Assembly: GCA_035327585.1 (NCBI GenBank) | Contig: DAOLDD010000012.1 | Location: forward strand, 10,882 to 74,881 | DNA from: Kiritimatiellia bacterium | Lineage (GTDB): Bacteria; Verrucomicrobiota; Kiritimatiellia; CAIVKH01 | DNA length: 64,000 nt | Reading direction: 5' to 3' | Shown: piece after piece, positions 12,617 to 55,016 of the stretch | How the letters are laid out: the number at the start of each line of letters is the position of its first letter | Position numbering within the stretch: position 1 is the first letter of the stretch | Translations under genes and position numbers: made by a program | Notes under the pieces: model-generated | What the model saw: only the letters and a program-made list of their open reading frames with translations | What the model was told of the DNA's origin: nothing | The model's database searches: none

Positions 12617-12682
12617 ACAGCAGCCGCGAAAAAAGCGCCCTCTCCCCTTGGGGGAGGGGCGGGGCGAGGGTATGCTTGGCGT

Positions 12683-13312: not shown

Positions 13313-13320
13313 AAACCATC

Positions 13321-20095: not shown

Positions 20096-20203
20096 GGACG
20101 CAATCTTTTGTCAGTAGATAATAGATTATGTCAATTGATTCAACAAATAGCAGCTCTATGCTGGCCTATCAAAGAGTATTTATCAATCGAACGGAGCCTG
20201 TTC

Positions 20204-20974: not shown

Positions 20975-20987
20975 GCAGGAGGAATTC

Positions 20988-25590: not shown

Positions 25591-25663
25591 AAATTCTTGC
25601 GTCTGCTTCATTGTGCGTATAATCTGCATCGTTGAGTGGAAGAAAAGGGAAAGGAAAGGCGTC

Positions 25664-29341: not shown

Positions 29342-29343
29342 TC

Positions 29344-30812: not shown

Positions 30813-30895
30813 ATGTTTCACCGGTCACCATCGACGGAAATCCGTCGGCCCACGTATTACCCATCGCCTTGGCGCCGCGACGGGTCCTGTGTCGC

Positions 30896-35982: not shown

Positions 35983-36735
35983 ATGAATGCGTTTTTCCTC
36001 AGGGATCTCCTGCGTGGAGGTTGTCTTAACCTTGTATTCCTGACCCTGACCTCTGCAAGCCTTATTCAGGATGACTTTAATGGGAGTATGCTTGATACGA
36101 ATCAGTGGGGAACCGCATATACGGGGGGCGCGGCCGCTCCAGTACAGACCGGGGGCGGGTTGATGGTGCATGTGGAGACCAATTCGCAGAATCAACGGGC
36201 CCTGGTCTTCTCGACGCGAACGGACCTCGATTTTACCGCCAGGCCGATCACCATGGCGGCGACGATTTCCGCACTGGGCGGTGCGGGTGCGGTGCAGTGG
36301 CCCGTGAATCGCTATCTCTTAATAGGTTCCTTTGGAACCCAACCAGAAATTCAGAGTCGCTACTATCCCGGCTCGGAACTTCCCATGGGCGTATGGCTGG
36401 CTGCCGGGCAAACCAACGGCATGAATTATCTGGAAGTGGGTACGGTGCGTCTTGGGCGGGTGGAAACCACCCGGGAAATTTATCAAGGCGTATTGACCGC
36501 CATGTCGCTGACGTTGCATGGGAACACGTATTCCGTATCCGCCAGCGGCATCGATGGGTTCAGCGTGGGGGCCGACAACCGCATCGTGGGTGTCCTGGCG
36601 AATATTCACACCGAGGAATACAACGGCCATTTTCGTTTCGCGATGGGAGCCGCGAACTCTTTCCAGGGCGCGGTCTCCGAAGGCGCGTCGGTGGTTTGGG
36701 ACAGCGTGACGGTGAACTCGGCGCTTGCACCGTAG
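35983..36735 (+). CDS. Secreted protein with the novel lectin-like domain (paralog C), no PEP-CTERM anchor
   Basis: ATG at 35983 (Met 32 of the track ORF). Signal-like N-terminus. The domain ends in ...DSVTVNSALAP with no sorting signal. Confidence 0.7.
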   Translation: MNAFFLRDLLRGGCLNLVFLTLTSASLIQDDFNGSMLDTNQWGTAYTGGAAAPVQTGGGLMVHVETNSQNQRALVFSTRTDLDFTARPITMAATISALGGAGAVQWPVNRYLLIGSFGTQPEIQSRYYPGSELPMGVWLAAGQTNGMNYLEVGTVRLGRVETTREIYQGVLTAMSLTLHGNTYSVSASGIDGFSVGADNRIVGVLANIHTEEYNGHFRFAMGAANSFQGAVSEGASVVWDSVTVNSALAP

Positions 36736-36790
36736 CGGCTCCTGCCCGCCATGCTTGCGCAAATTAATGCCACGAAGGGACGCGTGCACA

Positions 36791-39700
36791 ATGAGACAGA
36801 TCGGTATCGCGGGAAAGAATGGATGGCGGCTTGCCGCACTGGGCTTGCTGTGTGTGATGGCCATGACGCCCGATAATTCGTCGATCGCCGCCGCGCAAGT
36901 GGCCGTCCGCAACCCAGGATGGATGACCTCTCCCCGGGGCGAGGTCGAGGGGTGGATGCTTCACTGGTGCCGCCGCACCATCGATGACGAGGGCCGCACT
37001 GTAATCCATCTGCCGGATCCGTCTGGCGTGCCATTCGCCAAACTCTCCCAGCGTATCCCGATTGATGATCCGGCGATTCTCGCCCTGACCGTAACCGCCA
37101 CCGTGCGGGCCCGGCCACCCGATGCCGCGCAAGAGAGCCCCTTGGAATCCGCGCCCAGCCTGTGCATCTACTATCATGGCGCGAATACGGGATGGTCCTA
37201 CAAGGAGGTCCTCTGGCCGGCGGGACGTGCCGGCGCGAAGAAGGTGATTCCGCGCGATGTGAACTGGCAAACGGTTTCGTTCGATCTGCCGCGCCCACCC
37301 GGGGCCGTTCAGGTGGAGATTGCGCTTGAGGCCAAGACGGGGTCCTTCGGATTGGACGTAGCGGAAATGACGATCACGGCCCTGCGGTCTTCTGATGCCA
37401 GCAACCAGCCGGTGGCTGCGGAACCCCAAGGTCCGGTCGACCGCAGCAACTTGCTCGCCGGGTCCATCACCCGATTCGAGGGCGGCTCCGCCGGTTGGCA
37501 GGTATTCGTGCTGCCTCATTATCCGGCCGTTCAGCTCGAGCCTGAATATGATCGCGCGCAGCCGGGGGAGGGTCAGGCCAGCATCCGTATCCCTCCAGGT
37601 GCGGGCCTCAATTCCATGCCCGTGCTGTTGGCCAAAGGAAAGGGAATCCGGACGTTATCCTTCCTCGCCCGTGCGGAACAGGCTGCGGAGCTGGTGGTCC
37701 GACAGGGCTATAACCATGGCAGCCTTCAGGATGTCCGGGTGCCGGTCACACGTGAGTGGACGCGTGTCCATGCCACGTATCCTGCTTCGAACAATCAGGA
37801 CGCACCCTTTTACTTCATCGAAAACCGCATGGTCGAAGGCCGCGGCACCGATGTTTATATTGATGCCATCAGTTTGAGCGAAGGCGGAACCACGGAATAC
37901 ATTGAGCCGCCGGCCGAGTTGATGCTGGTCCGGCAACCCAATGGTGTGGTGCGGGCGGATCTTTTGCTGGCCGGGGGAGTTGAGAATCCTGGTGCCTGGA
38001 CCTGGACGTTGGAGGAAGTCGACATCGAGTCCCGGCTATTGGCCCATGGGCTCGTCGCCTGGAAAGCGGAAGGGCCGCAACGCTACTCGGCCACGATTGA
38101 TCATCCCACGGATCACGGCATGTACCGGATCGTGCTGTTGCGGGATGAAGACCGGTCCATCGAGCCCATGCAGGAGTTGCTTATCGCGCAAGCTTCGTTC
38201 GCAACGTTGCCGGAATTCCGGGATGGAGGAGCGCCGGTCACGCTGGGCGTTCACGCGCACCACAACTGGGCGCGACAGGGCTCCCCGCCGCGTACGGTGT
38301 ATCATCATCCGGATTGGGAAACCTTTCTGCGCAGCCTGCGCACGATGGGCATTGAGTGGATGCGCTTTCATGGCGGTCGCGATAATCCGACCATCCTGTC
38401 CTTTGCCGCGCCCGATGGGCCCCGGAAGGACTATCTGCTCGCGCATGATCTCTTGAAGCCCTACCAGGACACCGGATTTCGTCTGATGGCCGTTCTCGAT
38501 GTGGGTTTCGGCAAATTGTTCCGTCGCGAGCCCTGGTTTGCTGCACGGGAAACCCACGGGGAATGGGGCCGCCACGCCCTGCCGGAAGACATGAGCGTGT
38601 GGACGGATTTTGTGAGGGCCATGGCCACGGCGTACGCCGACGTGTTTGATGCCTGGGAAGTAGTGAACGAACCCAACGGAACCATGCAGGCGAGCGACTA
38701 TATGCCCTTGCTGAAGGAGGCGTATGCGGTGCTGAAAGAGGTCGTGCCCGACAAACCCGTGTTGGGCGTTTGCGCCACGGCGGATTATGAATCCAGTCTC
38801 GACGGATTCGTCGAACAGTGTTTTGCGCTCGGCGCGGCGGACGCCATGGATATCTTGTCCTTCCATCCCTATGTCGGCAACGACACCCCGGAAGCGTCCT
38901 TGGTCCTCATGCAAAACACGGCCCGGCTGCTGGAGCGAAGCGGCGCCCAAAAGGGATTGTGGAACACCGAGAAGGGCTGGTCCACCATGCCCACCTATAT
39001 CTCCCACCAGGCACGCGGTACGTCCAAGCGCGCCGACTCCGCCATGGGTTCGGTCGGCGTTTCCGCGGTCCTCGGGGCGGCCTACAATGTGCGCAATATT
39101 CTCCACAGCAGCCGCGTTGGCGTGAATCATTATTTCATCTACAGCGGGATGAACCCCCAATTCGGTTGGCAGGCGAAGGGCCACTTCGGACCCGCCTTCG
39201 AATACGACGGAACCATGGGCCCCCTTTATTTCATGGTGGGCACGATCCAGCGCGTGCTGCAGGAGGCCACCTTCCGGGAAGCCATTACCTTGCGCGACGG
39301 CGGCCTCTGGGCCTATCTGTATGACTTTCCCGACAAGCGCGTCCTCGCCGCGCTCTGGACCAACGAGCGGAAGGAACCGACGGATCTTCGGTCCGAATCC
39401 GTATCCCGCGTGCCCGCGCGGGGCTGGGATGGCATGGGGCGCCCGCTGGACCTCTCGGCGCAAGGCGTCGCGGCCGGGCCGATGCCGACGTACTTCGTAT
39501 GGGACGACGCAGAGACTGGTGACATCGCGAACATGATCACCAACATGACCTGGGAGGCGGTGCCCCGTTTTCAAGTGCGGGTCGGACCCGCTCGGGATGG
39601 CTCACCCTGCTTTGAAGTTCGCGCAGCGAATCCGCTTGAAACCTCGATTCCCGCCCTTTGGGTTCCGGACGTCGGGCCGCCGCTTTCTCAGGACGTTCCG

Positions 39701-40474
39701 CCCGGCAGCGACCTAAGCATCGTTTCCGGTCTTCAGGGTGGCGACAAACACGCCACGCTGGACGGCATGCTCAAGATCGGCGCGACCGGGTTGACCCGCA
39801 TCCAGCAACGCAACCGGTTTCACGCGCTGATGATCGCGCCGTCGATGGATGCGGAAGAAGCCCCCCTCGTTATATCCAGCGCGGAGAGCGTCACCTTCGG
39901 CATGTTGCCGGACGGTTTCCTGGCCACCCATCCGATCAAACTCTGGCTCCGCGCGACGACCAACGGCCTGCGCATCGCATTCGATGTGCCCAAGCCGGAT
40001 CAGACGTACATGCAGATGCAGGTCGGCGCATCGCAGATCAACATGGATAGCGTTGAATTGTTTATGCGCACCCGGCCCGATGACGTGCAATGGGCCGGAG
40101 GTGGCTACCAGCGCGGCGATATTAAAATCAGTCTGGCCCAGGATCATCGGGACCCCGCGAAAAAATCCGTTCAAGTTGATCAAGGCGCGGACGCGATCCG
40201 CACGGAACAGATCGAGTTCCGTTTCGCCGCGCGCACCGTGTCGCCGGGCTATACCGGCACCGTCTTTATTCCCTGGACCGCCCTGCCGCTGCTGGAGAGT
40301 ACGCCGCCTGCAACCTTGGGGTTTGATCTGAGTTTCAATATGGCCGATGTCGCCGGCGTCCGCCGTGCGCAGGTCACCTGGTCCGGTCCGGGCTTCAACT
40401 GGCTCGATCCCAGCGGCCTCGGCGTCCTGCGCTTGACGCCCGCGCCGCGCACCAACGGGATCAGCGGACCGTGA
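36791..40474 (+). CDS. Large secreted multidomain glycoside hydrolase: N-terminal CBM-like beta-sandwich modules, a clan GH-A (beta/alpha)8 catalytic domain and a C-terminal CBM9-like module
   Basis: Signal peptide after the ATG at 36791. The NEP motif (EVVNEPN), typical of GH-A acid/base catalysts, a second conserved Glu region (WNTEKGW). The C-terminal segment resembles family-9 carbohydrate-binding modules. Confidence 0.6.
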   Translation: MRQIGIAGKNGWRLAALGLLCVMAMTPDNSSIAAAQVAVRNPGWMTSPRGEVEGWMLHWCRRTIDDEGRTVIHLPDPSGVPFAKLSQRIPIDDPAILALTVTATVRARPPDAAQESPLESAPSLCIYYHGANTGWSYKEVLWPAGRAGAKKVIPRDVNWQTVSFDLPRPPGAVQVEIALEAKTGSFGLDVAEMTITALRSSDASNQPVAAEPQGPVDRSNLLAGSITRFEGGSAGWQVFVLPHYPAVQLEPEYDRAQPGEGQASIRIPPGAGLNSMPVLLAKGKGIRTLSFLARAEQAAELVVRQGYNHGSLQDVRVPVTREWTRVHATYPASNNQDAPFYFIENRMVEGRGTDVYIDAISLSEGGTTEYIEPPAELMLVRQPNGVVRADLLLAGGVENPGAWTWTLEEVDIESRLLAHGLVAWKAEGPQRYSATIDHPTDHGMYRIVLLRDEDRSIEPMQELLIAQASFATLPEFRDGGAPVTLGVHAHHNWARQGSPPRTVYHHPDWETFLRSLRTMGIEWMRFHGGRDNPTILSFAAPDGPRKDYLLAHDLLKPYQDTGFRLMAVLDVGFGKLFRREPWFAARETHGEWGRHALPEDMSVWTDFVRAMATAYADVFDAWEVVNEPNGTMQASDYMPLLKEAYAVLKEVVPDKPVLGVCATADYESSLDGFVEQCFALGAADAMDILSFHPYVGNDTPEASLVLMQNTARLLERSGAQKGLWNTEKGWSTMPTYISHQARGTSKRADSAMGSVGVSAVLGAAYNVRNILHSSRVGVNHYFIYSGMNPQFGWQAKGHFGPAFEYDGTMGPLYFMVGTIQRVLQEATFREAITLRDGGLWAYLYDFPDKRVLAALWTNERKEPTDLRSESVSRVPARGWDGMGRPLDLSAQGVAAGPMPTYFVWDDAETGDIANMITNMTWEAVPRFQVRVGPARDGSPCFEVRAANPLETSIPALWVPDVGPPLSQDVPPGSDLSIVSGLQGGDKHATLDGMLKIGATGLTRIQQRNRFHALMIAPSMDAEEAPLVISSAESVTFGMLPDGFLATHPIKLWLRATTNGLRIAFDVPKPDQTYMQMQVGASQINMDSVELFMRTRPDDVQWAGGGYQRGDIKISLAQDHRDPAKKSVQVDQGADAIRTEQIEFRFAARTVSPGYTGTVFIPWTALPLLESTPPATLGFDLSFNMADVAGVRRAQVTWSGPGFNWLDPSGLGVLRLTPAPRTNGISGP

Positions 40475-40524: not shown

Positions 40525-41874
40525 CTACGCTTCTGAATGGTTGCGCCATTCTTCGGCGATCAGGGTCACCGGGTGTGCGACGCGGATTGGGAGATTCCGT
40601 TCCTTCAGCATGGCGCGAATTTGTCCCATGCAGCCTGGATTGGCCACGGCGAGCACGGCGGCCCCGGTATCGCTGATGTGTCCCGCTTTGCGCACGCCGA
40701 GTTTGCGAGCCTGTTCGGGCTGGGTGATATTGTAAACACCCGCGCTGCCGCAGCACCACGTGCTTTCGGGCAGGTCGACCCACTCATACGTCGCGAGGGA
40801 TTTCAACAGGCGACGTGGCGCGGCGGCGATGCGCTGGCCATGCACAAGGTGACACGCATCCTGGTAGGCCAGTTTTTGACGCGATTCCGGCGTCGGGCGA
40901 AGTTTCGGCCAGCGCTCCTGTTGTTCGACCAAGTACTCGTTGATATCCCTTATGCGGTGGTCCCAGGCCGCGGCACGATAGCGGTATACGGGATCGTCCG
41001 ACAGGAGCTGGCGGTAGTGGCGGATATGTGAACCGCATCCCGCGGCGTTGGTGATGATCGCATCAAACGCGCAGGGGTCCATCGCATCGAGATTGACCCG
41101 GGCCAGCGCGCGGGCGCCTTCGATGTCTCCATTGTGGGCGTGCAACGATCCGCAGCATTGTTGCTTGGGGGGAATGACCACCCGGCAGCCGATGCGTTCG
41201 AGCACTTCGACCGTCGCCCGATTAACATCGGCGAAGGCAATGTCCTGCACGCACCCGGCCAACAGGGCGACGCGTGGGCCGCCACCGTGGCTTTTCGTGA
41301 TGTAGCCCATCTGCGTGAAGGGCAGGGAAATGGCCGGGGACAACGGTTCCAGATCGGCGAGTTGTGTGGACATGAGCCGGATCAGGCCCAACCGTTTGGC
41401 CGCCGCTTGCAAGCCGGAGCGCTGCGCGATCCACAGCAGGCGGGCCACCGCGCGCAAACGGCGTCGCGAGGCGAACAGGTATGTCATCAAAAAACGACGG
41501 GCGAAGGATCGCCGGGGTGTTGCGAGCAGGCCGGATGCTTCGACGTCGGCGCGCGCGGCCTCGAGCATCGGCGCGTACCGGACATCCGCCGGACACGCCG
41601 TCTGGCAGGCAAGACATCCGAGGCAGTAGTACATTTCCTTCGCGAAGTGGGGCCCGATGCGACTTTCGCCGGCGGCCACCGCTTTCATCATGGCGATGCG
41701 TCCGCGCGGGCTCGAGTTCTCGTTTTTTGTTTCGTCATAGGTGGGGCAGGTCGGCAGGCACATGCCGCAATGGATGCACGTTTGGAGGATCGAGAAATCG
41801 AGCGCGGCAAGGCGGGAAACCTTGCCGGGAATATCGGGCGATGGCGGAGAGGATGCCGGAAGGGCGCCGCTCAT
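40525..41874 (-). CDS. glcF: Glycolate oxidase-type iron-sulfur subunit (GlcF-like: 2x[4Fe-4S] ferredoxin plus CCG domains)
   Basis: CIHCGMCLPTCPTYD and CLGCLACQTACPADV cluster motifs. Cysteine-rich CCG repeats. Confidence 0.75.
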   Translation of the reverse strand: MSGALPASSPPSPDIPGKVSRLAALDFSILQTCIHCGMCLPTCPTYDETKNENSSPRGRIAMMKAVAAGESRIGPHFAKEMYYCLGCLACQTACPADVRYAPMLEAARADVEASGLLATPRRSFARRFLMTYLFASRRRLRAVARLLWIAQRSGLQAAAKRLGLIRLMSTQLADLEPLSPAISLPFTQMGYITKSHGGGPRVALLAGCVQDIAFADVNRATVEVLERIGCRVVIPPKQQCCGSLHAHNGDIEGARALARVNLDAMDPCAFDAIITNAAGCGSHIRHYRQLLSDDPVYRYRAAAWDHRIRDINEYLVEQQERWPKLRPTPESRQKLAYQDACHLVHGQRIAAAPRRLLKSLATYEWVDLPESTWCCGSAGVYNITQPEQARKLGVRKAGHISDTGAAVLAVANPGCMGQIRAMLKERNLPIRVAHPVTLIAEEWRNHSEA

Positions 41875-43247
41875 CAGAAAATCTTCCCGGGATTCAGAAT
41901 GCCGTTGGGATCGAGGGCGGATTTGATCGCCTGGTGCAGACGAAGTCCGGTGGCATCGACCACCAGGGGTAGAAATTCCTTTTTCGCGAGTCCGATGCCA
42001 TGCTCGCCAGTGATGGTGCCGCCAAGCGCGACGGCTTTTTCGAAAATCTCCGTGAACGCGGCATGCACCCGTTTCATTTCCCCGGCATCGCGCTCGTCGG
42101 TCAGGAAGGTCGGGTGCAGGTTGCCGTCGCCCATATGCCCGAACGTGCCCACGCGCAGATGATGACGTTCCGCTGTTTCCTGGATGAACACGACCATCTC
42201 GGCCAGCCGGCTGCGCGGAACGGTGGCGTCCTCGAGGATTACGGTGGGCGAACGTCGGGCCAGTGCGCTGAAGGCACTGCGTCGGGCCGTGCGCAGTTGC
42301 TCGGCGTCGGCGTTGGTTTCGGCGGTGCGAACAAACAAGGCGCCGTGATCCCTGGCAATCCGCGTCATGACCTCGGCTTCCTCCGCGACAACGGCGGGGT
42401 GTCCGTCCGTCTCCATCAGCAGCAGCGCCCCGGCATCAAGGGGCAGGCCGATGTTGGCATATTCCTCGACGCACTGAATGGTCACACGGTCGAGGAACTC
42501 CAGGGTGCAGGGAATGACGGGGTGGGCAATGATAGCCGATACCGTGTCGGCCGCTTCGCGTATGGAAGCAAAGGAGGCGAGCAGGGTTTTGACCGCCGCG
42601 GGCTTCGGAAGGAGTTTCACCAGGATTTCCGTGATGATGCCGAGCGTTCCCTCCGAACCGATAAACAGATCCTTGAGCCGGTAACCGGCGGAGTCTTTCA
42701 CGCAGGCCGAACCCGTTCGCAGGACATCGCCATTGGCCAGCACCACTTCCAATCCGAGAATGTAGTCGCGTGTGACTCCGTATTTCAGGCCGCGCAATCC
42801 GCCTGAGTTGTGGTTGACGTTGCCGCCGAGGGTCGAGATCGCCATGGAACCCGGATCAGGCGGGTAAAACAATCCATGGGCGAGAGCGGCACTGTTGAGC
42901 ATCGCGGTGCGCACGCCCGGCTGAACGCGGGCCTGGAGATTGGCCGGGTCGACCTCGAGGATGCGGTCCATCTTCGCCAGGCAGAGAACCAGTCCATCCG
43001 GCACCGGCAGGGCGCTTCCACTCAGGCTGGTGCCGGAACCACGCGGCACCACCGGTATGCGTTGCTGATTGGCCAGCCGCAGAACGCCGGCCACCTGGTC
43101 GCGGTTCCGGGGAAACACCACCGCCGCCGGACGCTGGGTCATGGCCGCCGTCCCGTCGAAACCGTATGCGATCAACTGGTCCGGTTCGGCCAGCACGTGC
43201 TCCGCGCCGACGATTCCCGCGAGGGCTTCGATGGTCGATCTATTCAC
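41874..43247 (-). CDS. glcD: FAD-linked oxidase (GlcD / D-lactate dehydrogenase family)
   Basis: FAD-binding PCMH domain (VVPRGSGTSLSG) and a C-terminal FAD-oxidase domain. Start overlaps the glcF stop. Confidence 0.75.
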   Translation of the reverse strand: MNRSTIEALAGIVGAEHVLAEPDQLIAYGFDGTAAMTQRPAAVVFPRNRDQVAGVLRLANQQRIPVVPRGSGTSLSGSALPVPDGLVLCLAKMDRILEVDPANLQARVQPGVRTAMLNSAALAHGLFYPPDPGSMAISTLGGNVNHNSGGLRGLKYGVTRDYILGLEVVLANGDVLRTGSACVKDSAGYRLKDLFIGSEGTLGIITEILVKLLPKPAAVKTLLASFASIREAADTVSAIIAHPVIPCTLEFLDRVTIQCVEEYANIGLPLDAGALLLMETDGHPAVVAEEAEVMTRIARDHGALFVRTAETNADAEQLRTARRSAFSALARRSPTVILEDATVPRSRLAEMVVFIQETAERHHLRVGTFGHMGDGNLHPTFLTDERDAGEMKRVHAAFTEIFEKAVALGGTITGEHGIGLAKKEFLPLVVDATGLRLHQAIKSALDPNGILNPGKIF

Positions 43248-44758: not shown

Positions 44759-47341
44759 TTACCAGGTGATTAATACGGTTCCGGTGACATGGTGGACTTC
44801 AAGCCGATCTCCCAGCGCGTCGCGCTTGTGCTCGGGTTTCAGAAAGTTGCCGACCATGTAAGGCGCGGACGGATGCAGGAGAATGCGCACGCGGTCGGCT
44901 GATCCCGTTTCCGGGTAGAAGCGCAACGTGGCGTTGCGGAGTCCGAGCACCCGCAGGCGGCGGGACACGCCGATTTCACCGGAATGGTTGGCGATGCACG
45001 AGAGCTCGCCCGTCTCCTGTCCGTCCACGAACAGCCGGCATTCCCGATGCCAGGCGCGCGGCATTGTGTAGGTTGCCCGTCCGTTTTCCAGCCGGGTTTC
45101 GCATCCGACCAGCAGCGGCGCGCCCTGCGGCAGGCGCAGATGCAGCGTCGCCGTGGTTTCGGGAACATAGCCGGAGAAAAAGAATCCGTTGGCGTGGCGG
45201 GCGATGACCGAGAGCGGCTCGCGGGTGATGCGATCGCGCACCTCGATCGGCGTGCGTCCGGAATTTCCTGCGACGCCCGGCTCGAAGAGCATCGGATTCT
45301 CCTGATCCGGCCCGCGCATGGCGAAGCGAATATCGAAACCGAACCGTGACAGCAGAAAGCGGGGCAGTACGTCAGAGGGAAAATACGTCGCGGGGTCCAA
45401 GGGCCGCGGATGGCGTCCATGCGTATGGCAATCGAAGGTGTTGCTCCCGCGCACCCAGACCATATGTCCGGAACCAATGCGGCGTTCCGTTGCGAGGGCC
45501 TTTTCTTCTCCAGAAGTCGGAATGGCCCGGGCTAGAAGGCGGACGGAGGGGTCGTCGGATCGCGCGACTTCACACAATGGCCCGGCCGAGGTCAGCGCGT
45601 CATGGCGCAGCAGGGACGGATATTCCGCATGGGTGAGGCGGTCGGATTCGAGATCGCTCGCGAAGCGGAAGTCGCCTTCCAACGGTTCTCCCGGTTGGAC
45701 CCCAATCCAATCGCGCGTTGCCTTGTCCAGATGTTCGGTCGGCCCGTAAAGCAGCAGGCGACCGCCCTTCCGCACGGCGTCTTCCAACGCCGTCCGGGCG
45801 GGGCCGAGCAGCGCTGCCGTTGGGGCAACCAGAATGGATTCTTGAAACGCATGGGCGTTTGTTGGCCAAGCTTGGGCGAATGCGGTGGTGCTGATGACGG
45901 TGTGGAGGGGCAAGCCCCGGTTCACCGCGCCACGCATGAACCAGTCGCCGAAGAAGACCTCGGCCAGTCGGGGCGCGGGACCGAAGGTCATGTCGTGATA
46001 CTCGTCGAAAGGATAAACCCAGACGAGCGGGCCGGGCTGATCGGGGGCGTCCCGGCGACCGGCCAGCAGGTGGGGAATCGCTTCGAGGGGCACCTGGTCC
46101 GGAAGGCAACCGTATGAATCGTCCGCGGTCAGGAATTCGAAGGAGGAGGGCGTTTGCGTGCGGCCGGTGCGATCGAGTCGGGCTACCGCGAGGGGAAGAT
46201 AAATGTCGTGCGGCTCGCGTCCGTAGCGGTCGAGCCACGGACTGTTGAGCCACCAGGGATCGTGTATGTAGAGGCGGAACGGGAATTTCTCCTCGGGCGG
46301 CAACTCGGCGATGTGCGACATCCAGCCGACCAGTTCGAGGCCGAAGTCGCCGTCAATCGCGGCCCAGGGGGAATTGGGCGGCGGGGTCAGGTTATACGAT
46401 CCGCGATAAATATCGCGCAGGGGAACCGCGTCGCTCGACAGATCCATGCCGGTCGACAGATTGGTGCCGCGGGTCTCGATCACAAAATCGGGGCACTCGC
46501 GGCGGAAATCTTTCCAGAACGCCAGGCTCTTCGCGCGGATTTCCGGGATGCGGTCGGCCTTGAATTCCCTGCCGTCGAACAGTGGTCCCAGGTAGCCCCA
46601 GGTTTCGATGCCGAACCCGAAGCCGTTCGAAAACCAGATGTAGTCGAAACCGAGGTCGGTCAGGAAGTGGTGCGACTGGCGGCCGAGAAAGGCGCCAAAC
46701 GATAGGCCTTCCGGAATGCCGGTTGGAAATCCCGCATACCGTCGGTTATCGGCACGCAACGTAGCGTAGCATCCGACAAAGGAGGCTCTGCCCATCGTTC
46801 CGCCCAAACAAATCTCCGGGTGTCGCTGATATTTGAATGGTGATTTGGCGAACTCGGGTCCGGGATCGAACGTGGCGCCAACCCGCACCGGCTTGCCGGT
46901 CACTTCGCCGCCGACCTCTTTCAAAATGCCCAACAACTGTTTGAGCCAGCCGTAGGTGAAGGTCGGCGGATGCGCCGTGTAGAGCACGTTGCGGCTGTGC
47001 AGATTTAGGCCTTCAGGATCGTTGGGGCTGGAGAGCACCGTTGGCTGGGTGTTCGAGGGCGTCGGGCCGGGGTCTTCGGTATCTTTTCCCCAATGCGCGA
47101 CGCCCGACGGATTGGCGTGGCCGATGTAGCGAGCCCATTCGAAGGGCGCCTCCAGGTCGCCGGCATAGTCCAGAATCTCGGAACCGTCCGCCGACCACAA
47201 CATCACCGAAATGCCGTCCGCTTCGCGGAGCAGGGGTTTCCACTGATCGAAAAGATGGCGGCAGACCGCCCGGACAGCCGGTTCCGATGCATCCTTGAAC
47301 GGCTTCAAGCTCATTTCGAGCGTTACATTGTTCAGGCGCAT
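44759..47341 (-). CDS. Large (860 aa) cytoplasmic protein of unknown function in a sugar-catabolic operon, possibly a novel glycoside hydrolase
   Basis: ATG at 47341 (Met 73 of the track ORF). No signal peptide or TM segment. No family recognised. 12 nt downstream of the AraA-like gene. Confidence 0.5.
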   Translation of the reverse strand: MRLNNVTLEMSLKPFKDASEPAVRAVCRHLFDQWKPLLREADGISVMLWSADGSEILDYAGDLEAPFEWARYIGHANPSGVAHWGKDTEDPGPTPSNTQPTVLSSPNDPEGLNLHSRNVLYTAHPPTFTYGWLKQLLGILKEVGGEVTGKPVRVGATFDPGPEFAKSPFKYQRHPEICLGGTMGRASFVGCYATLRADNRRYAGFPTGIPEGLSFGAFLGRQSHHFLTDLGFDYIWFSNGFGFGIETWGYLGPLFDGREFKADRIPEIRAKSLAFWKDFRRECPDFVIETRGTNLSTGMDLSSDAVPLRDIYRGSYNLTPPPNSPWAAIDGDFGLELVGWMSHIAELPPEEKFPFRLYIHDPWWLNSPWLDRYGREPHDIYLPLAVARLDRTGRTQTPSSFEFLTADDSYGCLPDQVPLEAIPHLLAGRRDAPDQPGPLVWVYPFDEYHDMTFGPAPRLAEVFFGDWFMRGAVNRGLPLHTVISTTAFAQAWPTNAHAFQESILVAPTAALLGPARTALEDAVRKGGRLLLYGPTEHLDKATRDWIGVQPGEPLEGDFRFASDLESDRLTHAEYPSLLRHDALTSAGPLCEVARSDDPSVRLLARAIPTSGEEKALATERRIGSGHMVWVRGSNTFDCHTHGRHPRPLDPATYFPSDVLPRFLLSRFGFDIRFAMRGPDQENPMLFEPGVAGNSGRTPIEVRDRITREPLSVIARHANGFFFSGYVPETTATLHLRLPQGAPLLVGCETRLENGRATYTMPRAWHRECRLFVDGQETGELSCIANHSGEIGVSRRLRVLGLRNATLRFYPETGSADRVRILLHPSAPYMVGNFLKPEHKRDALGDRLEVHHVTGTVLITW

Positions 47342-47378: not shown

Positions 47379-48137
47379 TCATCCCGACAGTTGTTTCCCG
47401 AATTCCGCCGCCGCCGCCAGCAACGCCCTGCGCGCCGCCATGCGTGCGGGGGCTCGAAAACGCGACAGCGGTGCGCTGCAACCGATGCCGAACAGGAAGT
47501 GTCCCGCGGTATCGAACACCGGGACCGCGACCGCGCCGATTCCACTTTGGCGCACATTGACGGCTTCCGCCCAACCGCGTTTGCGAACGAGCGCCAGCAG
47601 CGCGAGCAGTTCGTTTGGGGTTCGGGGCAACTCCGGTCCCAGGTCGTCCCGTTTCAGCGATCCGACATAGTGGCGGTGGACCGCTTCGTCCTGATGGGCG
47701 AGGGTCACCAGACCGGTCGCCATCCGGTGCGGAGCCTTTGCCGGGCCGATTTCCGGCACCACGGCCAGCGCCTGATCGGCCTGGATGCCGTCCAGAACCA
47801 CGACGTTCGTTCCGTCGTGCGCCATGACGGTCACGGTTTCGCCCAGTCGCGCATGCAGCCGCGCCAATCCCGGACGAATCGCTTCAACCAGCGCGCGCAG
47901 GGGATCCGACCCGCGGCCCAGCTCCATCGCCGTCCGGCCCAGGCGATAACCTCGGGACTCCTCGTCGAACGCAAGAAATCCCCTGGCCACCAGGGTGCGC
48001 AACAAGTCGTGCGCCGTCGGCGCTTTCAGGCCCGTCCTCCGGGCCAGTTCCCGCACGCCCACCGGTTTGCCGCCCGCCTTCCCTGCCTCCAGCAGCAGTC
48101 GAAGCGCCCGATCGACGGATTGAATCATGTTCGGCAT
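47379..48137 (-). CDS. IclR-family transcriptional regulator
   Basis: N-terminal IclR HTH (SVDRALRLLLEAGKAGGKPVGVRELARRTGLKAPTAHDLLRTL) and a C-terminal GAF-like effector domain. Confidence 0.8.
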   Translation of the reverse strand: MPNMIQSVDRALRLLLEAGKAGGKPVGVRELARRTGLKAPTAHDLLRTLVARGFLAFDEESRGYRLGRTAMELGRGSDPLRALVEAIRPGLARLHARLGETVTVMAHDGTNVVVLDGIQADQALAVVPEIGPAKAPHRMATGLVTLAHQDEAVHRHYVGSLKRDDLGPELPRTPNELLALLALVRKRGWAEAVNVRQSGIGAVAVPVFDTAGHFLFGIGCSAPLSRFRAPARMAARRALLAAAAEFGKQLSG

Positions 48138-48299
48138 TGTCGTACACTATTCGCTAATGCCGTACATACTCGGATGGGGAGGCGTCGGGGTCAAGGGGGA
48201 AAGTTATCGACGGGCACCGACTTCGGGCGGTGATGTCACGATGAGCATGCCCCGGTTTACCGTGAACGAGCTTGGCTTCACGGCGCAGTCCGCGGCATA

Positions 48300-50537
48300 G
48301 TGCGTGACCTTCGCGCTATGATGAGATCAACGTTGACGCATCAATGGATTGCTCACCCCGACCAGTGTCTGAGCGACTGGCGCCAACCCGTCCGGCCTGC
48401 GCCGCTCTTCAGGCGCGAAATTTTCCTCGCCGCTCCGCCTCGTCTCGCCCGCTTGCGCATATGCGGACTCGGGTTCCATGAACTCCGCATCAACGGGGAA
48501 AAGGTCGGAGACCATGTGCTTGATCCGATCGTCACCCAGTATGACCGGCGCGTACGTTATGTTGTTCACGATGTGACGGCACATTTGCGGGAAGGCATCA
48601 ACGCCCTGGGCGTCATGCTGGGCAACGGCTGGTACAATTGCTTCACGCCCGATGTCTGGCACTTCGATAAAGCGGCGTGGCGCGACTATCCCAAACTCTG
48701 GCTGGAGTTGCAGGTTGAGGATATTCACGGCGAATGCACCACGCTCTGTACCGACAAACACTGGCGGGTGGGGGATGGCCCCGTACGCGTTGACGGCTTG
48801 CGCAGCGGGGAAACCTACGACGCTCGCGAGGAGCGTCCCGGTTGGGATGCGCCGGGCTTTGACGATTCACGCTGGCTTGTCGCCCGCGTCGTTCCTGCGC
48901 CAGGCGGTGTCCTCGAGGAGCAGACATCGCCTCCGTGCAAGATCGTGGATACCCTTGTGCCGATTTCCGTCCGCGAAATCCGGCCCGGTGTCGCCGTGTA
49001 CGACATGGGCGTCAATATCGCGGGGTGGGCCCGGTTGCACGTGGCGGGCGAGCCGGGCCAGGAAATCGTGCTGCGGTATGGGGAGCGTCTGAAAGACACC
49101 GGCGAGCTGGATCAAGGCCACATCGCCAGCTTCATCCTCGGCGGGGAATGTCAGACCGACCGCTATATTTGCAGGGGCGGCGAATCTGAAACCTGGGAGC
49201 CACGCTTTACGTATCATGGATTCCAATACGTTCAGGTGGAAGGTCTGAAGGGCGCGCCTTCGCTCGAAACGATCCGCGCCCGGGTCGTCCACACGGCTTT
49301 TGAATCCGCCGGTTCATTTGCGTGTTCCGATGAAACCGTAAATCGCTTGCAGATCTGCACCCGCCGCGCCTATCTCGGCAACTTCGTTGGCATCCCCACC
49401 GATTGTCCCCACCGCGAGAAAAACGGGTGGACGGGTGACGCCCATCTGGCGGCGGAAACGGGTTTGCTCAATTTCACCGCAGCCTCATCCTATCGGCAGT
49501 GGCTGCAGACCCTGGCCGATACCCAGCGGCCCAGCGGCCAGTTGCCGGGCATCGCGCCGTCCGCCGGATGGGGCTACAATTGGGGCTCCGGGCCGGCTTG
49601 GGATGCCGCCCTCGTGCTGATTCCCGGTTACATCCATCTCTATACCGGAGACGACAGCGTCATTCGCGAGCAGTACGACAACATCCGGCGCTATCTCGAT
49701 TTCTGCGCGAGCATGGCCGATGGCCATATCCTCGAATTCGGGCTCGGCGACTGGTGCTGCGCCCGTCCCGACCACATGCCGACCAACGCCCTCACGTCGA
49801 CGGCCTACTACCATGTTTTCGCCCGTGAAACCGCCCGCTATGCCCGGCTTCTCGGACACACCGCGGATGCGGTGGCCTGCGATGAACTGGCCGGCCAAAT
49901 TCGTCTCGCGTTTCACAACCGGTTTCACCGGGGCGATGGTCGTTACGACAACGGCAGCGTGACCGCGCAAAGTTGCGCCCTCTATCAAGGACTGGTCGAA
50001 GAGGGGCTGCGGGCGTCCGCGGCGCGGCGTCTGGCAGAGGCGGTTGAGGCATCCGGCGTCACCGCCGACTTTGGCATTCTTGGCGCGAAGTACACGCTCC
50101 GTGCGCTTGCCGAAAACGGGTTCGAGGAACTGGCCTTTCGCTTGATCACGCAGCCTGCTTATCCCGGTTGGGCCTGTTGGCTCGCACAGGGCGCCACCAC
50201 CCTTTGGGAAAACTGGAATGGCGCGGACAGCCGCAACCACATCATGTTTGGGGATATCAGCGCCTGGTTCATTCACTATCTCGGGGGCATCCGTCCCGAT
50301 CCAGAACAGCCTGGCTTCAAGCGCGTGATCTTCCGCCCCTGTTTTGTCGGGGGACTGTCCAGCGTGGAGGCTACCCATCGTTCGCCGCATGGGCTGATCC
50401 GCAGCGGGTGGAAACGTGAGGGCAAAACGATTCGACTGGATCTGGAGCTGCCCGTCGGCGTGGAGGCGGAGTGGAACGATCCGCCGTCCGGCGTCGCGTC
50501 CGGAATGCCCTCCGGCCAACACGTGTTCACATTTTGA
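48300..50537 (+). CDS. Alpha-L-rhamnosidase (GH78)
   Basis: Bacterial rhamnosidase N-terminal beta-sandwich domains plus an (alpha/alpha)6 catalytic domain with the GH78 signature GIPTDCPHREKNGWTGDAHL. 745 aa. Confidence 0.8.
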   Translation: MRDLRAMMRSTLTHQWIAHPDQCLSDWRQPVRPAPLFRREIFLAAPPRLARLRICGLGFHELRINGEKVGDHVLDPIVTQYDRRVRYVVHDVTAHLREGINALGVMLGNGWYNCFTPDVWHFDKAAWRDYPKLWLELQVEDIHGECTTLCTDKHWRVGDGPVRVDGLRSGETYDAREERPGWDAPGFDDSRWLVARVVPAPGGVLEEQTSPPCKIVDTLVPISVREIRPGVAVYDMGVNIAGWARLHVAGEPGQEIVLRYGERLKDTGELDQGHIASFILGGECQTDRYICRGGESETWEPRFTYHGFQYVQVEGLKGAPSLETIRARVVHTAFESAGSFACSDETVNRLQICTRRAYLGNFVGIPTDCPHREKNGWTGDAHLAAETGLLNFTAASSYRQWLQTLADTQRPSGQLPGIAPSAGWGYNWGSGPAWDAALVLIPGYIHLYTGDDSVIREQYDNIRRYLDFCASMADGHILEFGLGDWCCARPDHMPTNALTSTAYYHVFARETARYARLLGHTADAVACDELAGQIRLAFHNRFHRGDGRYDNGSVTAQSCALYQGLVEEGLRASAARRLAEAVEASGVTADFGILGAKYTLRALAENGFEELAFRLITQPAYPGWACWLAQGATTLWENWNGADSRNHIMFGDISAWFIHYLGGIRPDPEQPGFKRVIFRPCFVGGLSSVEATHRSPHGLIRSGWKREGKTIRLDLELPVGVEAEWNDPPSGVASGMPSGQHVFTF

Positions 50538-50581: not shown

Positions 50582-51760
50582 CTACAGTTTCCGGTTCGCG
50601 CGGATCAGGGCAATGCGCTGGCGGACGCTTTTCGCGGAACGTAATCCGTCGGGCGGCGTGTTCTTCACGTAATCGAGCAGGCGTTCAATTGAACTCGTGG
50701 CGACGTGCAGCCGCGTGTCGGACGACGCGTAGTAGATCAACACGCGGCCATCCGGTTGCGCCACCCAGCCGTTGCTGAACACGACGTTCGAGACGTCGCC
50801 GATGCGTTCCGCGCCGTCCGGCGCGATGAAGTAGCCGGCGGGTTTTGCGATGACGCGGGTGGGGTCCGCCAGGTCCGTGAGGAACAGGTAGAGCACATAG
50901 CGCAGGCCCGCCGCCGTGTTGCGTACCCCGTGGGCGAGGTGCAGCCAGCCTTCCGCCGTTTTGATCGGCGCGGGGCCCTGGCCGTTTTTCAGCTCGCTGA
51001 TCGTGTGGTAGACGCGCCGGTCGATGATGGTTTCCGCGCCGGTGACGGCCTTTTCCATCGAGTCGCAGAGCGCCCAACCGATGCCGCCGCCGCTGCCGGT
51101 GTCGATGAAGCCGTCCTGCGGCCGGGTGTAGAGCGCGTATTTGCCGCCGACGAATTCCGGGTGCAGCACGACGTTGCGCTGTTGGGCCGACGGCGTCTTG
51201 ACATCGGCCAGTCGCTCCCATGTTTTCAGGTCGCGCGTACGCACCACACCGCACTGCGCGACGGCGCTCGACTGGTCCGACGGCGGCGCGGCGGGATCGC
51301 GGCGCTCGGTGCAGAACAGGCCGTAAATCCAGCCGTCCTCGTGGCGCACAAGGCGCATGTCGTAGACGTTGGTGTCCGGGTCGTTGGTCTCGGGGATGAC
51401 GCAGGGTTCGTCGAAGAAGCGGAAGTTGTCGATGCCGTTCGGCGACCAGGCCATCGCGAAGAAACTCTTGCGGTCCCAGCCCTCGACGCGGACGCAGATC
51501 GCCACGCCGCCGTTCCATTCGATCGCCCCCGCGTTGAACGCCGCGTTGACGCCGAGGCGCTCGAGCAGGAATGGATTGGAGGCCGGATTGAGGTCGTAAC
51601 GCCACTCGAGCGGGATGTGGGCCGCGGTGACCACCGGGTGGGCGTAGCGTTCATAGACGCCGTTGTCCCAGGCGGGATCCACCGCATTTGTTTTGGCGAG
51701 CAGGGTTTCGTGCGTGGCGCGCAGGCGCGCGAGTCGTTCGGCGAAGGGTGGTGTATTCAT
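50582..51760 (-). CDS. Glycoside hydrolase family 130 protein (second copy)
   Basis: Start at the internal ATG 51760 (cat at 51758-51760), since the 668-aa track ORF's N-terminus overlaps the divergent GH27 gene. 392 aa. GH130 regions (YERYAHPVV, GWIYGLFCTERRD, LIYYASSDTR). Confidence 0.75.
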   Translation of the reverse strand: MNTPPFAERLARLRATHETLLAKTNAVDPAWDNGVYERYAHPVVTAAHIPLEWRYDLNPASNPFLLERLGVNAAFNAGAIEWNGGVAICVRVEGWDRKSFFAMAWSPNGIDNFRFFDEPCVIPETNDPDTNVYDMRLVRHEDGWIYGLFCTERRDPAAPPSDQSSAVAQCGVVRTRDLKTWERLADVKTPSAQQRNVVLHPEFVGGKYALYTRPQDGFIDTGSGGGIGWALCDSMEKAVTGAETIIDRRVYHTISELKNGQGPAPIKTAEGWLHLAHGVRNTAAGLRYVLYLFLTDLADPTRVIAKPAGYFIAPDGAERIGDVSNVVFSNGWVAQPDGRVLIYYASSDTRLHVATSSIERLLDYVKNTPPDGLRSAKSVRQRIALIRANRKL

Positions 51761-51913
51761 GGCGTTTGTTGGAGGGGAGAATAATTGGGAATGGCGCGGA
51801 ATCAATTCAAACAACATCGTACATTGCGCTGCGTTGCTGGAGAAGAATGACCCGCACATGCGAGCTGCTTGTATCCCCGGGACGCGCGTGCTATTCATGA
51901 CGGCACATACGCC

Positions 51914-53401
51914 ATGAAGAAAAAAACAGCACCCGTCGCTCATCCGCCGCGTTTGAATGGCGCGCGCGTATTCGGTTGCCGCCCCGGCGCACCGATTCAA
52001 TTCCGCCTCGCCGCTTCCGGCACGGGGCCCCTCTACTTCGACGTGGAACGCCTGCCGCGGGGACTGCGGCTCGACGCGCGGACGGGGCAGCTCAGCGGCA
52101 GCCTGCGCGAACCCGGTCGCCACACGCTGGCGATTCGGATTTCCGGGCCCGGCGGCCATTGCGATTCCGCCGTCGTGGTTCACTGCGGAGCGCGCATCGC
52201 GCTGACGCCACCGATGGGGTGGAACTCGTGGAACTGCTGGGCCGCGTCGGTCTCGCAAGAGAAGGTGCTGACCTCCGCGACGGCGATGGCGAATTTGCTC
52301 CTGCCGCACGGGTGGAACAGCGTCAACATCGACGACGCCTGGCAGGGCGAGCGCAGCCGTCGCGCCCCTTATGCGCTGCAGCCGAATGAAAAATTTCCCG
52401 ACATGGCCGGCCTTGCCGACGCGATCCACGGCATGGGGCTGCGGATGGGCATCTATTCGACGCCCTGGGCCACGAGTTATGCCGGCTTCCGCGGTGGCTC
52501 GGATGATCACCCGCGCGGCCAAAGCCGCCTCCCGGCCTGTCCCGATTGCTGGTGGGAGCGCCGCGCCGCGTTTTATCACGGATTGCATTCGTTCGCCGCC
52601 GCCGATGCCCGCCAGTGGGCCGCGTGGGGCGTCGACTATCTTAAATACGATTGGTATCCGAACGATGTCGCCTCGACACGCGCGATGGACGAGGCGCTCC
52701 GCGCGTCCGGCCGTGACATCGTGCTCTCCCTATCGAATACGCTGTCTTTTGAGGGCGTGTTTCACACCCTGCCGCACGCGCAGGTCTGGCGCACCACCGG
52801 CGACATCGTGGACGAATGGTCGCGCGGATCGGCGTCGCACCAGGGCTTCCAGGGCATCGCCGACATCATCCGTCACCATGCGCCGTATCACGTGTATCAG
52901 AAACCGGGGCACTGGAATGACCCGGACATGCTGGTGCTGGGCCAGGTGGGCTGGGGGCCCAACCTGCACCCCACGCGCCTGACGCAGGTCGAACAACTCA
53001 CGCACTTCGCCACGTGGTGTCTTTGGTCGGCCCCGCTGCTCATTGGCTGCCCGCTCGACCGGCTGGATCCGTTTACGCTGGCGCTGCTGACCAATGATGA
53101 GTTAATCGACCTGAATCAGGACGCGTGCGGCGTGCAGGCGTATCCCATTCAGCAATCCAAGGACACCCTGATCCTGCGCAAGCCGCTGGCCGGTGGTTCG
53201 GTGGCCTTCGGACTGCTGAACTTCGGCGAGAGCCCGCGCGAGATGACGTTGGACCGGAAGCTCGCGGAACTCCTCACTGGCGACTACCAGTTGCGCGACC
53301 TCGTCGCGCGCCAGGACCTCGGCGCCCTCGGCCCGCGCATCGGCGTCGACGTCGAACCCCACGGCATTCGCGTCGTGCGTTGCACGCCCACTGCCGCATA
53401 G
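51914..53401 (+). CDS. Alpha-galactosidase (GH27) with an N-terminal extension
   Basis: GH27 signatures PMGWNSWN, IDDAWQ, DYLKYD. C-terminal beta-sandwich. Confidence 0.8.
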   Translation: MKKKTAPVAHPPRLNGARVFGCRPGAPIQFRLAASGTGPLYFDVERLPRGLRLDARTGQLSGSLREPGRHTLAIRISGPGGHCDSAVVVHCGARIALTPPMGWNSWNCWAASVSQEKVLTSATAMANLLLPHGWNSVNIDDAWQGERSRRAPYALQPNEKFPDMAGLADAIHGMGLRMGIYSTPWATSYAGFRGGSDDHPRGQSRLPACPDCWWERRAAFYHGLHSFAAADARQWAAWGVDYLKYDWYPNDVASTRAMDEALRASGRDIVLSLSNTLSFEGVFHTLPHAQVWRTTGDIVDEWSRGSASHQGFQGIADIIRHHAPYHVYQKPGHWNDPDMLVLGQVGWGPNLHPTRLTQVEQLTHFATWCLWSAPLLIGCPLDRLDPFTLALLTNDELIDLNQDACGVQAYPIQQSKDTLILRKPLAGGSVAFGLLNFGESPREMTLDRKLAELLTGDYQLRDLVARQDLGALGPRIGVDVEPHGIRVVRCTPTAA

Positions 53402-54290: not shown

Positions 54291-55016
54291 ATGGTGATGG
54301 AAATGTCTAACAATCAGGAAAACACGATGAGCGCATCCGACAAACCGATCCGCAATGCCCTGGTCGTCTGGGGCGGCTGGGATGGCCACACGCCCGAACA
54401 GTCCGCCAACGTTTTCGTCCCGTTCCTGCGCGAGCAGGGGTTCGAGGTGCAGGTGGAGCAGGGGATCGCCGCCTACGCCGACGCGGAGCGCATGCAGCGC
54501 ATGGACCTCGTGGTGCAGTGCGTGACGATGAGCACGATCAAGCCGGAAGAGCGCAAGGGGCTGTGCGAGGCGGTGGCCGCAGGCACGGGCTTCGCGGGCT
54601 GGCACGGCGGCATCATCGATTCCTTCCGCCAGGAAACCGAGTACCAATTCATGACCGGCGCGCAGTGGGTCGCGCATCCCGGCAACTGCATCCCGTCCTA
54701 CTCCGTGCAGGTCGTCGACCCGGGGCACGAAATCACGCGCGGGATCAACGCCTTCGAACTGCGCGACACGGAGCAATATTACATCCACGCCGACCCGGGC
54801 CTGCACGTGCTCTGCACGACGCGGTTCAGCGGGGAGCACGGCGACGCGACGCGCTATCCGGCGGGCGTGATCATGCCTTACGCCTACACCCGGCGCTGGG
54901 GTGCGGGCCGCGTGTTCGTGGCCTGTTGGGGCCACACGTTCAAGGATTTCGACGTGCCGGAGGCGCGGACGATCGTGCAGCGCGGCCTGCTGTGGTCCGC
55001 GCGCGAAAATGCCTGA
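54291..55016 (+). CDS. ThuA-like (trehalose-utilisation; class-I glutamine amidotransferase-like fold) protein
   Basis: ThuA-family features (ALVVWGGWDGH, GWHGGIID, RVFVACWGHT). The alternative start is ATG 54327. Confidence 0.65.
   Translation: MVMEMSNNQENTMSASDKPIRNALVVWGGWDGHTPEQSANVFVPFLREQGFEVQVEQGIAAYADAERMQRMDLVVQCVTMSTIKPEERKGLCEAVAAGTGFAGWHGGIIDSFRQETEYQFMTGAQWVAHPGNCIPSYSVQVVDPGHEITRGINAFELRDTEQYYIHADPGLHVLCTTRFSGEHGDATRYPAGVIMPYAYTRRWGAGRVFVACWGHTFKDFDVPEARTIVQRGLLWSARENA

Follow-up and report, generated by a model that had tools for sequence, protein, structure and literature searches.

We analysed a window of 64,000 nucleotides (the whole stretch of DNA considered here) from Kiritimatiellia bacterium (GenBank assembly GCA_035327585.1, contig DAOLDD010000012.1, positions 10,882 to 74,881 of the forward strand), and focused on one gene of its minus strand, hereafter the target, which encodes an 860-residue protein. 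The target belongs to a row of co-directional minus-strand genes, which runs from an IclR-family regulator through the target to an isomerase of the AraA/FucI superfamily, a GlcD-like oxidase and a GlcF-like subunit (Table 1). We found that the target represents a large protein family without a match in family databases, that its predicted structure has the three-domain architecture of glycoside hydrolase (GH) family GH42, and that the isomerase recurs beside its relatives in other genomes. The target is quite probably a carbohydrate-active enzyme that cleaves oligosaccharides.

The target and the isomerase gene are separated by a spacer of 11 nt (ggaaaatcacc), and an AAGGA motif overlaps the stop codon of the target. 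An earlier reading of this stretch from its letters (the sequence-only reading) had put the target downstream of the isomerase with a 12-nt gap and had described the IclR gene as divergent. In fact, the target lies upstream, the regulator is on the same strand, and the truly divergent neighbour is the GH78 gene. Pfam recognises both an N-terminal helix-turn-helix (HTH_IclR) and a C-terminal effector domain in the regulator, and the inverted repeat at its start codon is, from its sequence and position, a candidate IclR operator. The half-site of ATGTTCGGCATT-N17-AATGCCGTACAT occurs nowhere else in the window, yet 10 of 100 shuffles yield two or more matches, so that the statistical case for the repeat is weak. 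A scan for promoters and terminators over 40.3-48.5 kb of the window gave results at chance level only.

Table 1. Coordinates of the target, its predicted domains and the adjoining features in the window
Feature	Coordinates	Strand	Position or remark	Evidence
Target gene, 860-aa cytoplasmic protein, unnamed glycosidase-like family	44759..47341	minus		Open reading frame (ORF), start codon, homologues, AlphaFold2 model
(beta/alpha)8 barrel, residues ~1-475	45917..47341	minus	Most conserved part	
Alpha/beta ThuA / class-I-glutamine-amidotransferase-like middle domain, residues ~481-560	45662..45901	minus		AlphaFold2 model
C-terminal beta-sandwich region, residues ~561-860	44762..45661	minus	Less conserved than barrel	
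IclR-family regulator	47379..48137	minus	37 nt upstream of target, co-directional	PF09339 HTH_IclR 4e-11, PF01614 IclR_C 1.7e-21
AraA/FucI-superfamily isomerase, 487 aa	43284..44747	minus	Translationally coupled partner of target, distinct subfamily	Pfam Arabinose_Iso_C 3.9e-10, Fucose_iso_C 2e-9
GlcD-like FAD-linked oxidase	41874..43247	minus	Downstream of isomerase, co-directional	Pfam, NCBIfam
GlcF-like Fe-S (CCG) subunit	40525..41874	minus	Start overlaps GlcD-like stop	Pfam
GH78 alpha-L-rhamnosidase	48300..50537	plus	Divergent from IclR-target operon	Four Bac_rhamnosid Pfam domains, E 7e-88
12-nt inverted repeat ATGTTCGGCATT-N17-AATGCCGTACAT, candidate operator	48127..48167	none	Overlaps IclR start codon, 162-bp divergent IclR/GH78 region	

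The target ORF reads from an ATG at 47341 to a TAA at 44761-44759. This start was chosen because the nearest homologue (P0001, 91% identity) is likewise 860 residues long. We rejected the mechanically longest ORF, of 932 codons from 47557, for three reasons: it extends, in a different frame, into the end of the IclR gene that lies upstream, the 72 residues it would add do not look like a signal peptide, and the homologues begin at MRLNN. The GC content by codon position (0.65/0.49/0.75, in a genome of 63% GC) is typical of coding DNA and, together with more than 2,600 full-length homologues, establishes the target as a real gene rather than a chance high-GC ORF. The highest Kyte-Doolittle mean over 19 residues is 1.05 and the N-terminus is hydrophilic; therefore, neither the hydropathy scan nor inspection of the N-terminus indicates a transmembrane segment or a signal peptide. 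The target matched no family in Pfam-A (2025; E <= 0.01) or NCBIfam (June 2026), and a single-sequence phmmer search of PDB sequences returned nothing. A profile of 28 family members, searched against all PDB sequences with hmmsearch (E <= 10), gave two spurious matches with E > 1 and nothing else. The ORF, the lack of an export signal or membrane segment, and the lack of a recognisable family thus agree with the sequence-only reading, which had named a confident match to a family unrelated to carbohydrates as the observation that would overturn it; such a match was looked for, and none was found.

The AlphaFold2 model of the target, built on a 28-sequence alignment, is confident (mean pLDDT 86.4, pTM 0.90). 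It shows the GH42-type arrangement of a (beta/alpha)8 barrel, which carries a disordered, query-specific insertion at residues 81-103, followed by an amidotransferase/ThuA-like domain and a beta-sandwich. A Foldseek comparison of the model with PDB, which the sequence-only reading had proposed as a check, was led by GH42 beta-galactosidases (5e9a, E 1.4e-15), followed by GH164 beta-mannosidase, GH42 alpha-L-arabinopyranosidase and GH167; the TM-scores are only 0.35-0.51, at 8-12% identity. In the C-terminal region, E767-C768-R769 (45038-45046) and the terminal W860 (44762-44764) are invariant among 28 closer homologues, as are R795 and R807. The invariance of W860 and of the E-C-R motif suggests a role for the C-terminus in the active site or at an interface between subunits of an oligomer.

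The likeness to GH42 is one of architecture. The target shares the three domains of the GH42 structures (5e9a, 4oif, 3tts, 1kwk, 5xb7; clan GH-A) without a sequence relationship to them (9-12% identity, TM-scores of only 0.4-0.5), and is about 130-180 residues longer. Neither Pfam (PF02449, E <= 0.01) nor the profile search of PDB (E <= 10) placed it in GH42. We also fetched GH42 sequences from PDB with an approximate GH42 consensus probe and aligned four catalytic domains; hhalign gave a probability of 0.28% for their relation to the target family. The GH164 beta-mannosidase Bs164 (6t5o) is comparable in its three-domain shape with a ThuA-like middle domain. However, the family profile did not match this structure, the GH167/GH42-like exo-carrageenase (6ptm, 9whd), GH151 (6tvk), the trimeric GH5 enzyme Op5Man5 (7bob) or the GH35 enzyme GlmA (5gsm) among all PDB sequences. 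All of these are retaining enzymes of clan GH-A that have the canonical pair of Glu residues. Set against Pfam-A, NCBIfam and PDB, the target is a candidate for a new GH family.

The predicted catalytic centre also appears to differ from that of GH42. In the GH42 sequences from PDB, the Glu of 'SNE' after beta4 serves as acid/base and that of 'LME' after beta7 as nucleophile. With strand ends assigned from the secondary structure of the model, beta3 of the target ends in F158-D159-P-G161-P-E163, beta4 in Y234-I-W-F-S238-N239-G240, beta5 in E289-T-R291-G-T-N294, beta6 in Y358-I-H360-D361-P-W363, beta7 in F403-L-T405-A-D407, and beta8 in V442-Y443-P444-F. Thus 'SNG' stands in place of 'SNE', the 'LME' motif is absent, and the two GH42 positions are held by Gly240 and Thr405/Ala406; by model strands and conservation, the canonical clan GH-A 'N-E' and beta7 Glu are not evident at the expected sequence positions, although residues of other loops may be equivalent to them in space. 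Conservation was evaluated over 77 divergent representatives with 29-53% identity. Residues conserved in at least 98% of these are G53, G161, E163, F164, H174, E176, G208, F218, Q222, S238, N239, W276, G292, N323, Y358, D361, W363, G411, Y443, P444, G533, G740 and P742, while G240 and D407 reach 93-98%. From this list and from the residues found at the GH42 positions, we favour the family's own conserved acids as catalytic candidates, namely E163 and E176 in the loop between beta3 and alpha3, and D361 at the end of beta6; S238-N239, H174, Q222 and Y358 are likely substrate-binding residues in the model. Glu246 was considered as a displaced acid/base and rejected, since its conservation in the close set does not extend across the divergent representatives. 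A resemblance of the beta4 segment GFDYIWFSNG to the GH27 segment 'GVDYLKYDN' was treated as chance, as hhalign against the GH27 of the window gave a probability of 0.15%.

The target family is large and compact. A word-indexed search yielded 2,607 cluster representatives or more, and the best 120 homologues are all full-length (about 800-890 aa), show 47-67% identity, contain no Pfam domain and are each named 'hypothetical protein' at the source. A HMMER profile search of 1.84 billion representatives returned 763 matches, 623 of them at E <= 1e-10. All 763 are members of the same family or fragments of them, and no bridge to another family was found among them; the family therefore does not grade into others. 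When one genome per species was scanned, relatives were present in at least 551 species, of phyla that include Armatimonadota, Lentisphaerota, Kiritimatiellota, Verrucomicrobiota, Planctomycetota, Hydrogenedentota, Acidobacteriota, Chloroflexota, Spirochaetota and Bacteroidota, and many come from cultured Bacteroidota such as Spirosoma, Larkinella, Runella, Pontibacter and Rhabdobacter. Most close homologues lack an N-terminal extension, but a signal-peptide-like one occurs in a sizeable minority (about 27 of 171 scored), with a clear signal peptide in a Spirosoma homologue. As judged from these predicted signals, the family is thus cytoplasmic in certain lineages and periplasmic in others. 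Full-text searches of the literature returned nothing relevant on the target family, on the subfamily of its partner isomerase, or on any uronate isomerase of non-orthologous type.

It is rather improbable that the target already belongs to a CAZy family for which there is neither a Pfam or NCBIfam model nor a solved structure, an explanation that overlaps the other alternatives weighed below. Many CAZy families have been added recently, but the current Pfam-A and NCBIfam releases hold no model for it, no PDB chain answers the family profile, and neither the source names nor our full-text searches of the literature give a description of it.

Two loci bear on the copy number and integrity of family members. 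In a Lentisphaerae metagenome-assembled genome (MAG; L007, MHBL01000029.1, 7485-12445), two target-family copies stand in tandem, followed by a gene like uroporphyrinogen decarboxylase (URO-D), a WbsX-like gene, a sulfatase and the isomerase, which points to an expansion by paralogues within one locus. In the closest relative of the window, Kiritimatiellia MAG GCA_034368105.1 (L088, 1284-3858), the place between the IclR and isomerase genes is called as two ORFs (577 and 307 aa) that overlap and match nothing in Pfam; they probably represent a target homologue split by a frameshift, through assembly error or as a pseudogene.

The neighbourhood of the family was compared in 80 species-representative loci, in which neighbouring ORFs were clustered, and in several targeted look-ups. 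In 38 of the 80 loci, the flank that was fetched contains the AraA-like isomerase, which always shares the strand of the target and is no more than 300 bp away in 12 loci. Where 5 kb or more of flank was available on both sides (43 loci), 24 loci contain it. A 419-aa transporter of the major facilitator superfamily (MFS) is present in 25 loci, with its best NCBIfam match, below the cut-off, to the 'D-galactonate transporter' subfamily of the anion:cation symporters (ACS; E 1e-72). SusC and SusD occur in 23 loci each, in the order SusC> SusD> TARGET>. Further recurrent neighbours are GH106 alpha-L-rhamnosidases (15 loci, often two copies), GDSL esterases (15), GntR/UTRA regulators (14), BD-FAE esterases (7), GH140 apiosidases (6) and three clusters of sulfatases (5-6 loci each), with GH5, GH3, and SASA and AXE1 esterases in smaller numbers. 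Judged by family type, the GDSL and BD-FAE esterases would be acetyl esterases for acetylated glycans. Rhamnosidases, either GH106 or GH78, recur beside members of the target family.

The gene order is stereotyped, and it differs among phyla. In Bacteroidota it is GntR< MFS> ISO> SusC> SusD> TARGET> [GH106 x0-2] [sulfatase] [BD-FAE] GDSL>, and in Acidobacteriota MFS> ISO> TARGET> or ISO> TARGET> GH106> MFS>. The order IclR> TARGET> ISO> is that of the Planctomycetota-Verrucomicrobiota-Chlamydiota (PVC) group, found in the window, in Ruficoccus sp. ZRK36 (L086), and in the closest relatives L087 and L088; it recurs in L010, L083 and L078. By SusC/SusD adjacency together with export, the Bacteroidota members behave as components of polysaccharide utilisation loci (PULs), and in several PULs from Cytophagia the target is the sole glycosidase-like gene; the copy in the window is cytoplasmic, in a PVC-type genome without SusC/SusD.

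Two further genes recur at these loci. A URO-D-like gene stands directly downstream of the target or the isomerase in PVC and Planctomycetota loci (L007 12445-13446, L019, L020), and between the two in L087 (7291-7875). URO-D-like proteins include methyltransferases, so this neighbour may hint at a methylated sugar substrate. In Paludibacter and Bacteroidales loci, a 427-aa protein without a Pfam match and with a faint NosD/beta-helix signal is encoded directly downstream of the target (L046, L058 at 12415-13698, L063, L064, L069 and L074), accompanied by GH5, GH140, GH130 and AXE1 genes; it adds to the PUL components that have no annotation.

The isomerase aligns nearly full-length with crystallised AraA enzymes (E 1e-9 to 1e-7). 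Its alignment to 4r1o and 7chl shows that the metal-binding and catalytic Glu-Glu-His-His of AraA are kept, at or near CGE319F, SFAE343F, GH357D and TH455H. It is very likely an active aldose-ketose isomerase because these four positions are conserved. Compared with L-arabinose isomerase AraA (4r1o, 2ajt), it is equal in length, whereas its score against the NCBIfam AraA equivalog is 53 bits at a cut-off of 622, a match to the sulfoquinovose isomerase SftI is about equally good, and its subfamily is tied to the target family. Across PVC genomes the subfamily shares about 70% identity, and the closest homologue, in a Kiritimatiellia MAG, shares 90%. By these sequence comparisons, the isomerase is a member of the AraA/FucI superfamily and not an AraA equivalog, and its substrate is probably not plain L-arabinose, because it falls far below the AraA cut-off and forms a conserved subfamily of its own. 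Since the MFS-isomerase pair is fixed, the monosaccharide released by the target may well be the substrate of the isomerase.

These results bear on the 'arabinose/glycolate-type' operon of the sequence-only reading, and neither half of that label is supported as a conserved feature. As to glycolate, none of the 80 species loci has GlcD/GlcF-like genes next to the module, nor do the two closest relatives, L087 and L088; we rejected them as members of the module, and in the window they are a lineage-specific addition. As to arabinose, the target could be a neutral-sugar, GH42-like exo-glycosidase (a beta-D-galactosidase or alpha-L-arabinopyranosidase) whose product, L-arabinose or D-galactose, is isomerised by the AraA-like enzyme. 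The closest structures, which are GH42 beta-galactosidases and the alpha-L-arabinopyranosidase 5xb7, would suit this explanation, and so would an isomerase that aligns full-length with AraA and keeps its catalytic residues. We consider it unlikely, since the isomerase scores so far below AraA and similarly to sulfoquinovose isomerase, the transporter that recurs with it is of the anion-type ACS class of the MFS and not an arabinose or galactose permease, hhalign to GH42 stays at 0.3%, and the target has 'SNG' for 'SNE' and lacks the 'LME' nucleophile.

The frequency of rhamnosidases raises the question of whether the target itself acts on a deoxy sugar. It could be a new alpha-L-rhamnosidase or other 6-deoxyhexosidase, in which case the isomerase would be a non-orthologous enzyme for L-rhamnose or L-fucose, and GlcD/GlcF of the window would oxidise lactate derived from lactaldehyde. 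The GH78 gene of the window, the GH106 genes of 15 loci, the Fucose_iso_C match of the isomerase and the GlcD/GlcF-like dehydrogenase downstream of it in the window are in line with this. One locus (L077) speaks on both sides. Its order is TARGET> GH106> MFS> ISO> RhaT> RhaEW, so that rhamnose genes follow the module, and the equivalog cut-offs are exceeded both for RhaT and for the bifunctional rhamnulose-1-phosphate aldolase/dehydrogenase. Rhamnose therefore has its own transporter and pathway there, and the ACS-type MFS and the isomerase serve a second sugar; the presence of both RhaT and the ACS MFS in one locus argues for two sugars. Since, in addition, the target is retained in loci that already carry one or two GH106 genes, and GlcD/GlcF do not accompany the module elsewhere, not even in the closest relatives, a 6-deoxyhexosidase is very unlikely.

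That the target cleaves a glycosidic bond is suggested by its fold, by its position after SusC/SusD, by the export signal in Bacteroidota, and by neighbouring rhamnosidases, esterases and sulfatases. It could alternatively carry out a non-hydrolytic or non-glycosidic reaction on a GH-like barrel, as a phosphorylase, transglycosylase, metal-dependent lyase, or de-esterifying, de-N-acetylating or sugar-modifying enzyme, which would explain the missing classical Glu pair. We give this only a low probability: the best multi-domain structural matches are all exo-glycosidases, no phosphate- or cofactor-related partner is conserved, and a gene that follows SusC/SusD and is often the sole GH-like gene of a PUL, beside separate esterases and sulfatases, calls for cleavage of glycosidic bonds. 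The phosphorylase that the sequence-only reading had offered as an option has nothing specific in its favour. Its other suggestion, an uncharacterised cytoplasmic GH acting on imported oligosaccharides, gains from the GH-type barrel, the lack of an export signal and the homologues placed directly after SusC/SusD; hydrolysis itself is inferred.

Our main proposal, to which we assign a probability of about 0.4, is that the target is a glycosidase of the exo-uronidase type, acting on galacturonate (GalA) or glucuronate (GlcA) in alternation with rhamnosidases, and that the AraA-like enzyme is a hexuronate isomerase. The target would remove one particular monosaccharide from imported or periplasmic oligosaccharides; this would most likely be an acidic hexuronate (D-galacturonate or D-glucuronate) adjoining alpha-L-rhamnose, from rhamnogalacturonan-I (RG-I), ulvan-like or gum-type polymers. 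The released sugar would be converted to a ketose by the co-translated, AraA-like isomerase of the Mn type, for which the galacto-configured GalA would be a stereochemically natural substrate, and an IclR repressor would control the target and isomerase pair.

Several observations favour this proposal. Members of TCDB family 2.A.1.14, to which the MFS transporter would belong, transport organic anions, so the sugar taken up would be one. GH140 enzymes cleave apiose off galacturonan. We favour the exo-uronidase because GH106, GH140 and the esterases would act on substituents of a uronate backbone, and because GH28 was not found among the clustered neighbours in PULs of the target type. GH106 cleaves Rha-alpha-1,4-GalA in the RG-I backbone, and in the RG-I PUL of B. 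thetaiotaomicron the GH106 enzyme BT4145 works with GH28 rhamnogalacturonan galacturonohydrolases (PMC8002723). By gene context, the target may resemble these GH28 enzymes in alternating with GH106 to dismantle a backbone of rhamnose and uronate, although GH28 is an inverting beta-helix enzyme with a wholly different fold. The canonical clan GH-A Glu pair is not evident in the target, so that its hydrolase chemistry is something we infer, as are its catalytic residues, its exo mode and the identity of the sugar.

A more specific version of the exo-uronidase proposal joins several parts, and we put it forward tentatively, as less probable than the proposal itself. In this version, the target family is an unclassified GH family on a GH42 scaffold with relocated catalysis, where E163/E176 of the beta3 loop and D361 of the beta6 loop would take over from the Glu pair of beta4 and beta7, and it feeds an acidic-sugar route through the AraA-like isomerase and the anion-type MFS; the sugar would be a hexuronate or a rarer acid from rhamnose-capped, acetylated or sulfated glycans.

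The window contains further genes related to sugar metabolism and surface proteins. A 1,249-aa protein on the plus strand (36725-40474) has a C-terminal CBM9-like domain (residues 1106-1238) as its only recognisable part, leaving about 1,100 residues without a match, and a similar giant protein with DUF6259 and CBM9 is encoded near the target homologue in L002 and L003. At 26711-30812 on the plus strand, three consecutive ORFs of 876, 275 and 260 aa lack a Pfam match; on one side of them a PEP-CTERM protein (25613-26488) is encoded, and on the other a DUF1559/N-methyl prepilin-like protein (30707-31582), as is typical of the 'dark' surface-protein content of PVC genomes. A xylose-isomerase-like TIM-barrel protein, a GFO/IDH/MocA oxidoreductase and a separate ThuA-family protein are encoded at 19328-22091 and 54291-55016; they are reminiscent of oxidative (3-keto) glycoside cleavage and appear unrelated to the target operon. 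There are two GH130 genes, one at 24556-25521 and one in a mechanical ORF of 668 aa on the minus strand (50582-52588), which matches GH130 in its C-terminal ~412 residues only; its Arg/Ala-rich N-terminal extension is probably untranslated.

Conserved 'hypothetical' genes in sugar loci limit the prediction of polysaccharide turnover by the PVC group and by soil and aquatic Bacteroidota. Assigning an activity to the target family, which is present in at least 551 species, would give thousands of genes an annotation in one step; a further CAZy family would probably result, and another way for an acidic sugar into central metabolism could come to light. If the relocated active site is real, the family would also serve as a useful example of how catalysis is re-invented within a common scaffold. 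If the joint version holds as a whole, an unrecognised, widespread acidic-sugar route would exist in the PVC group, Bacteroidota, Acidobacteriota and Armatimonadota.

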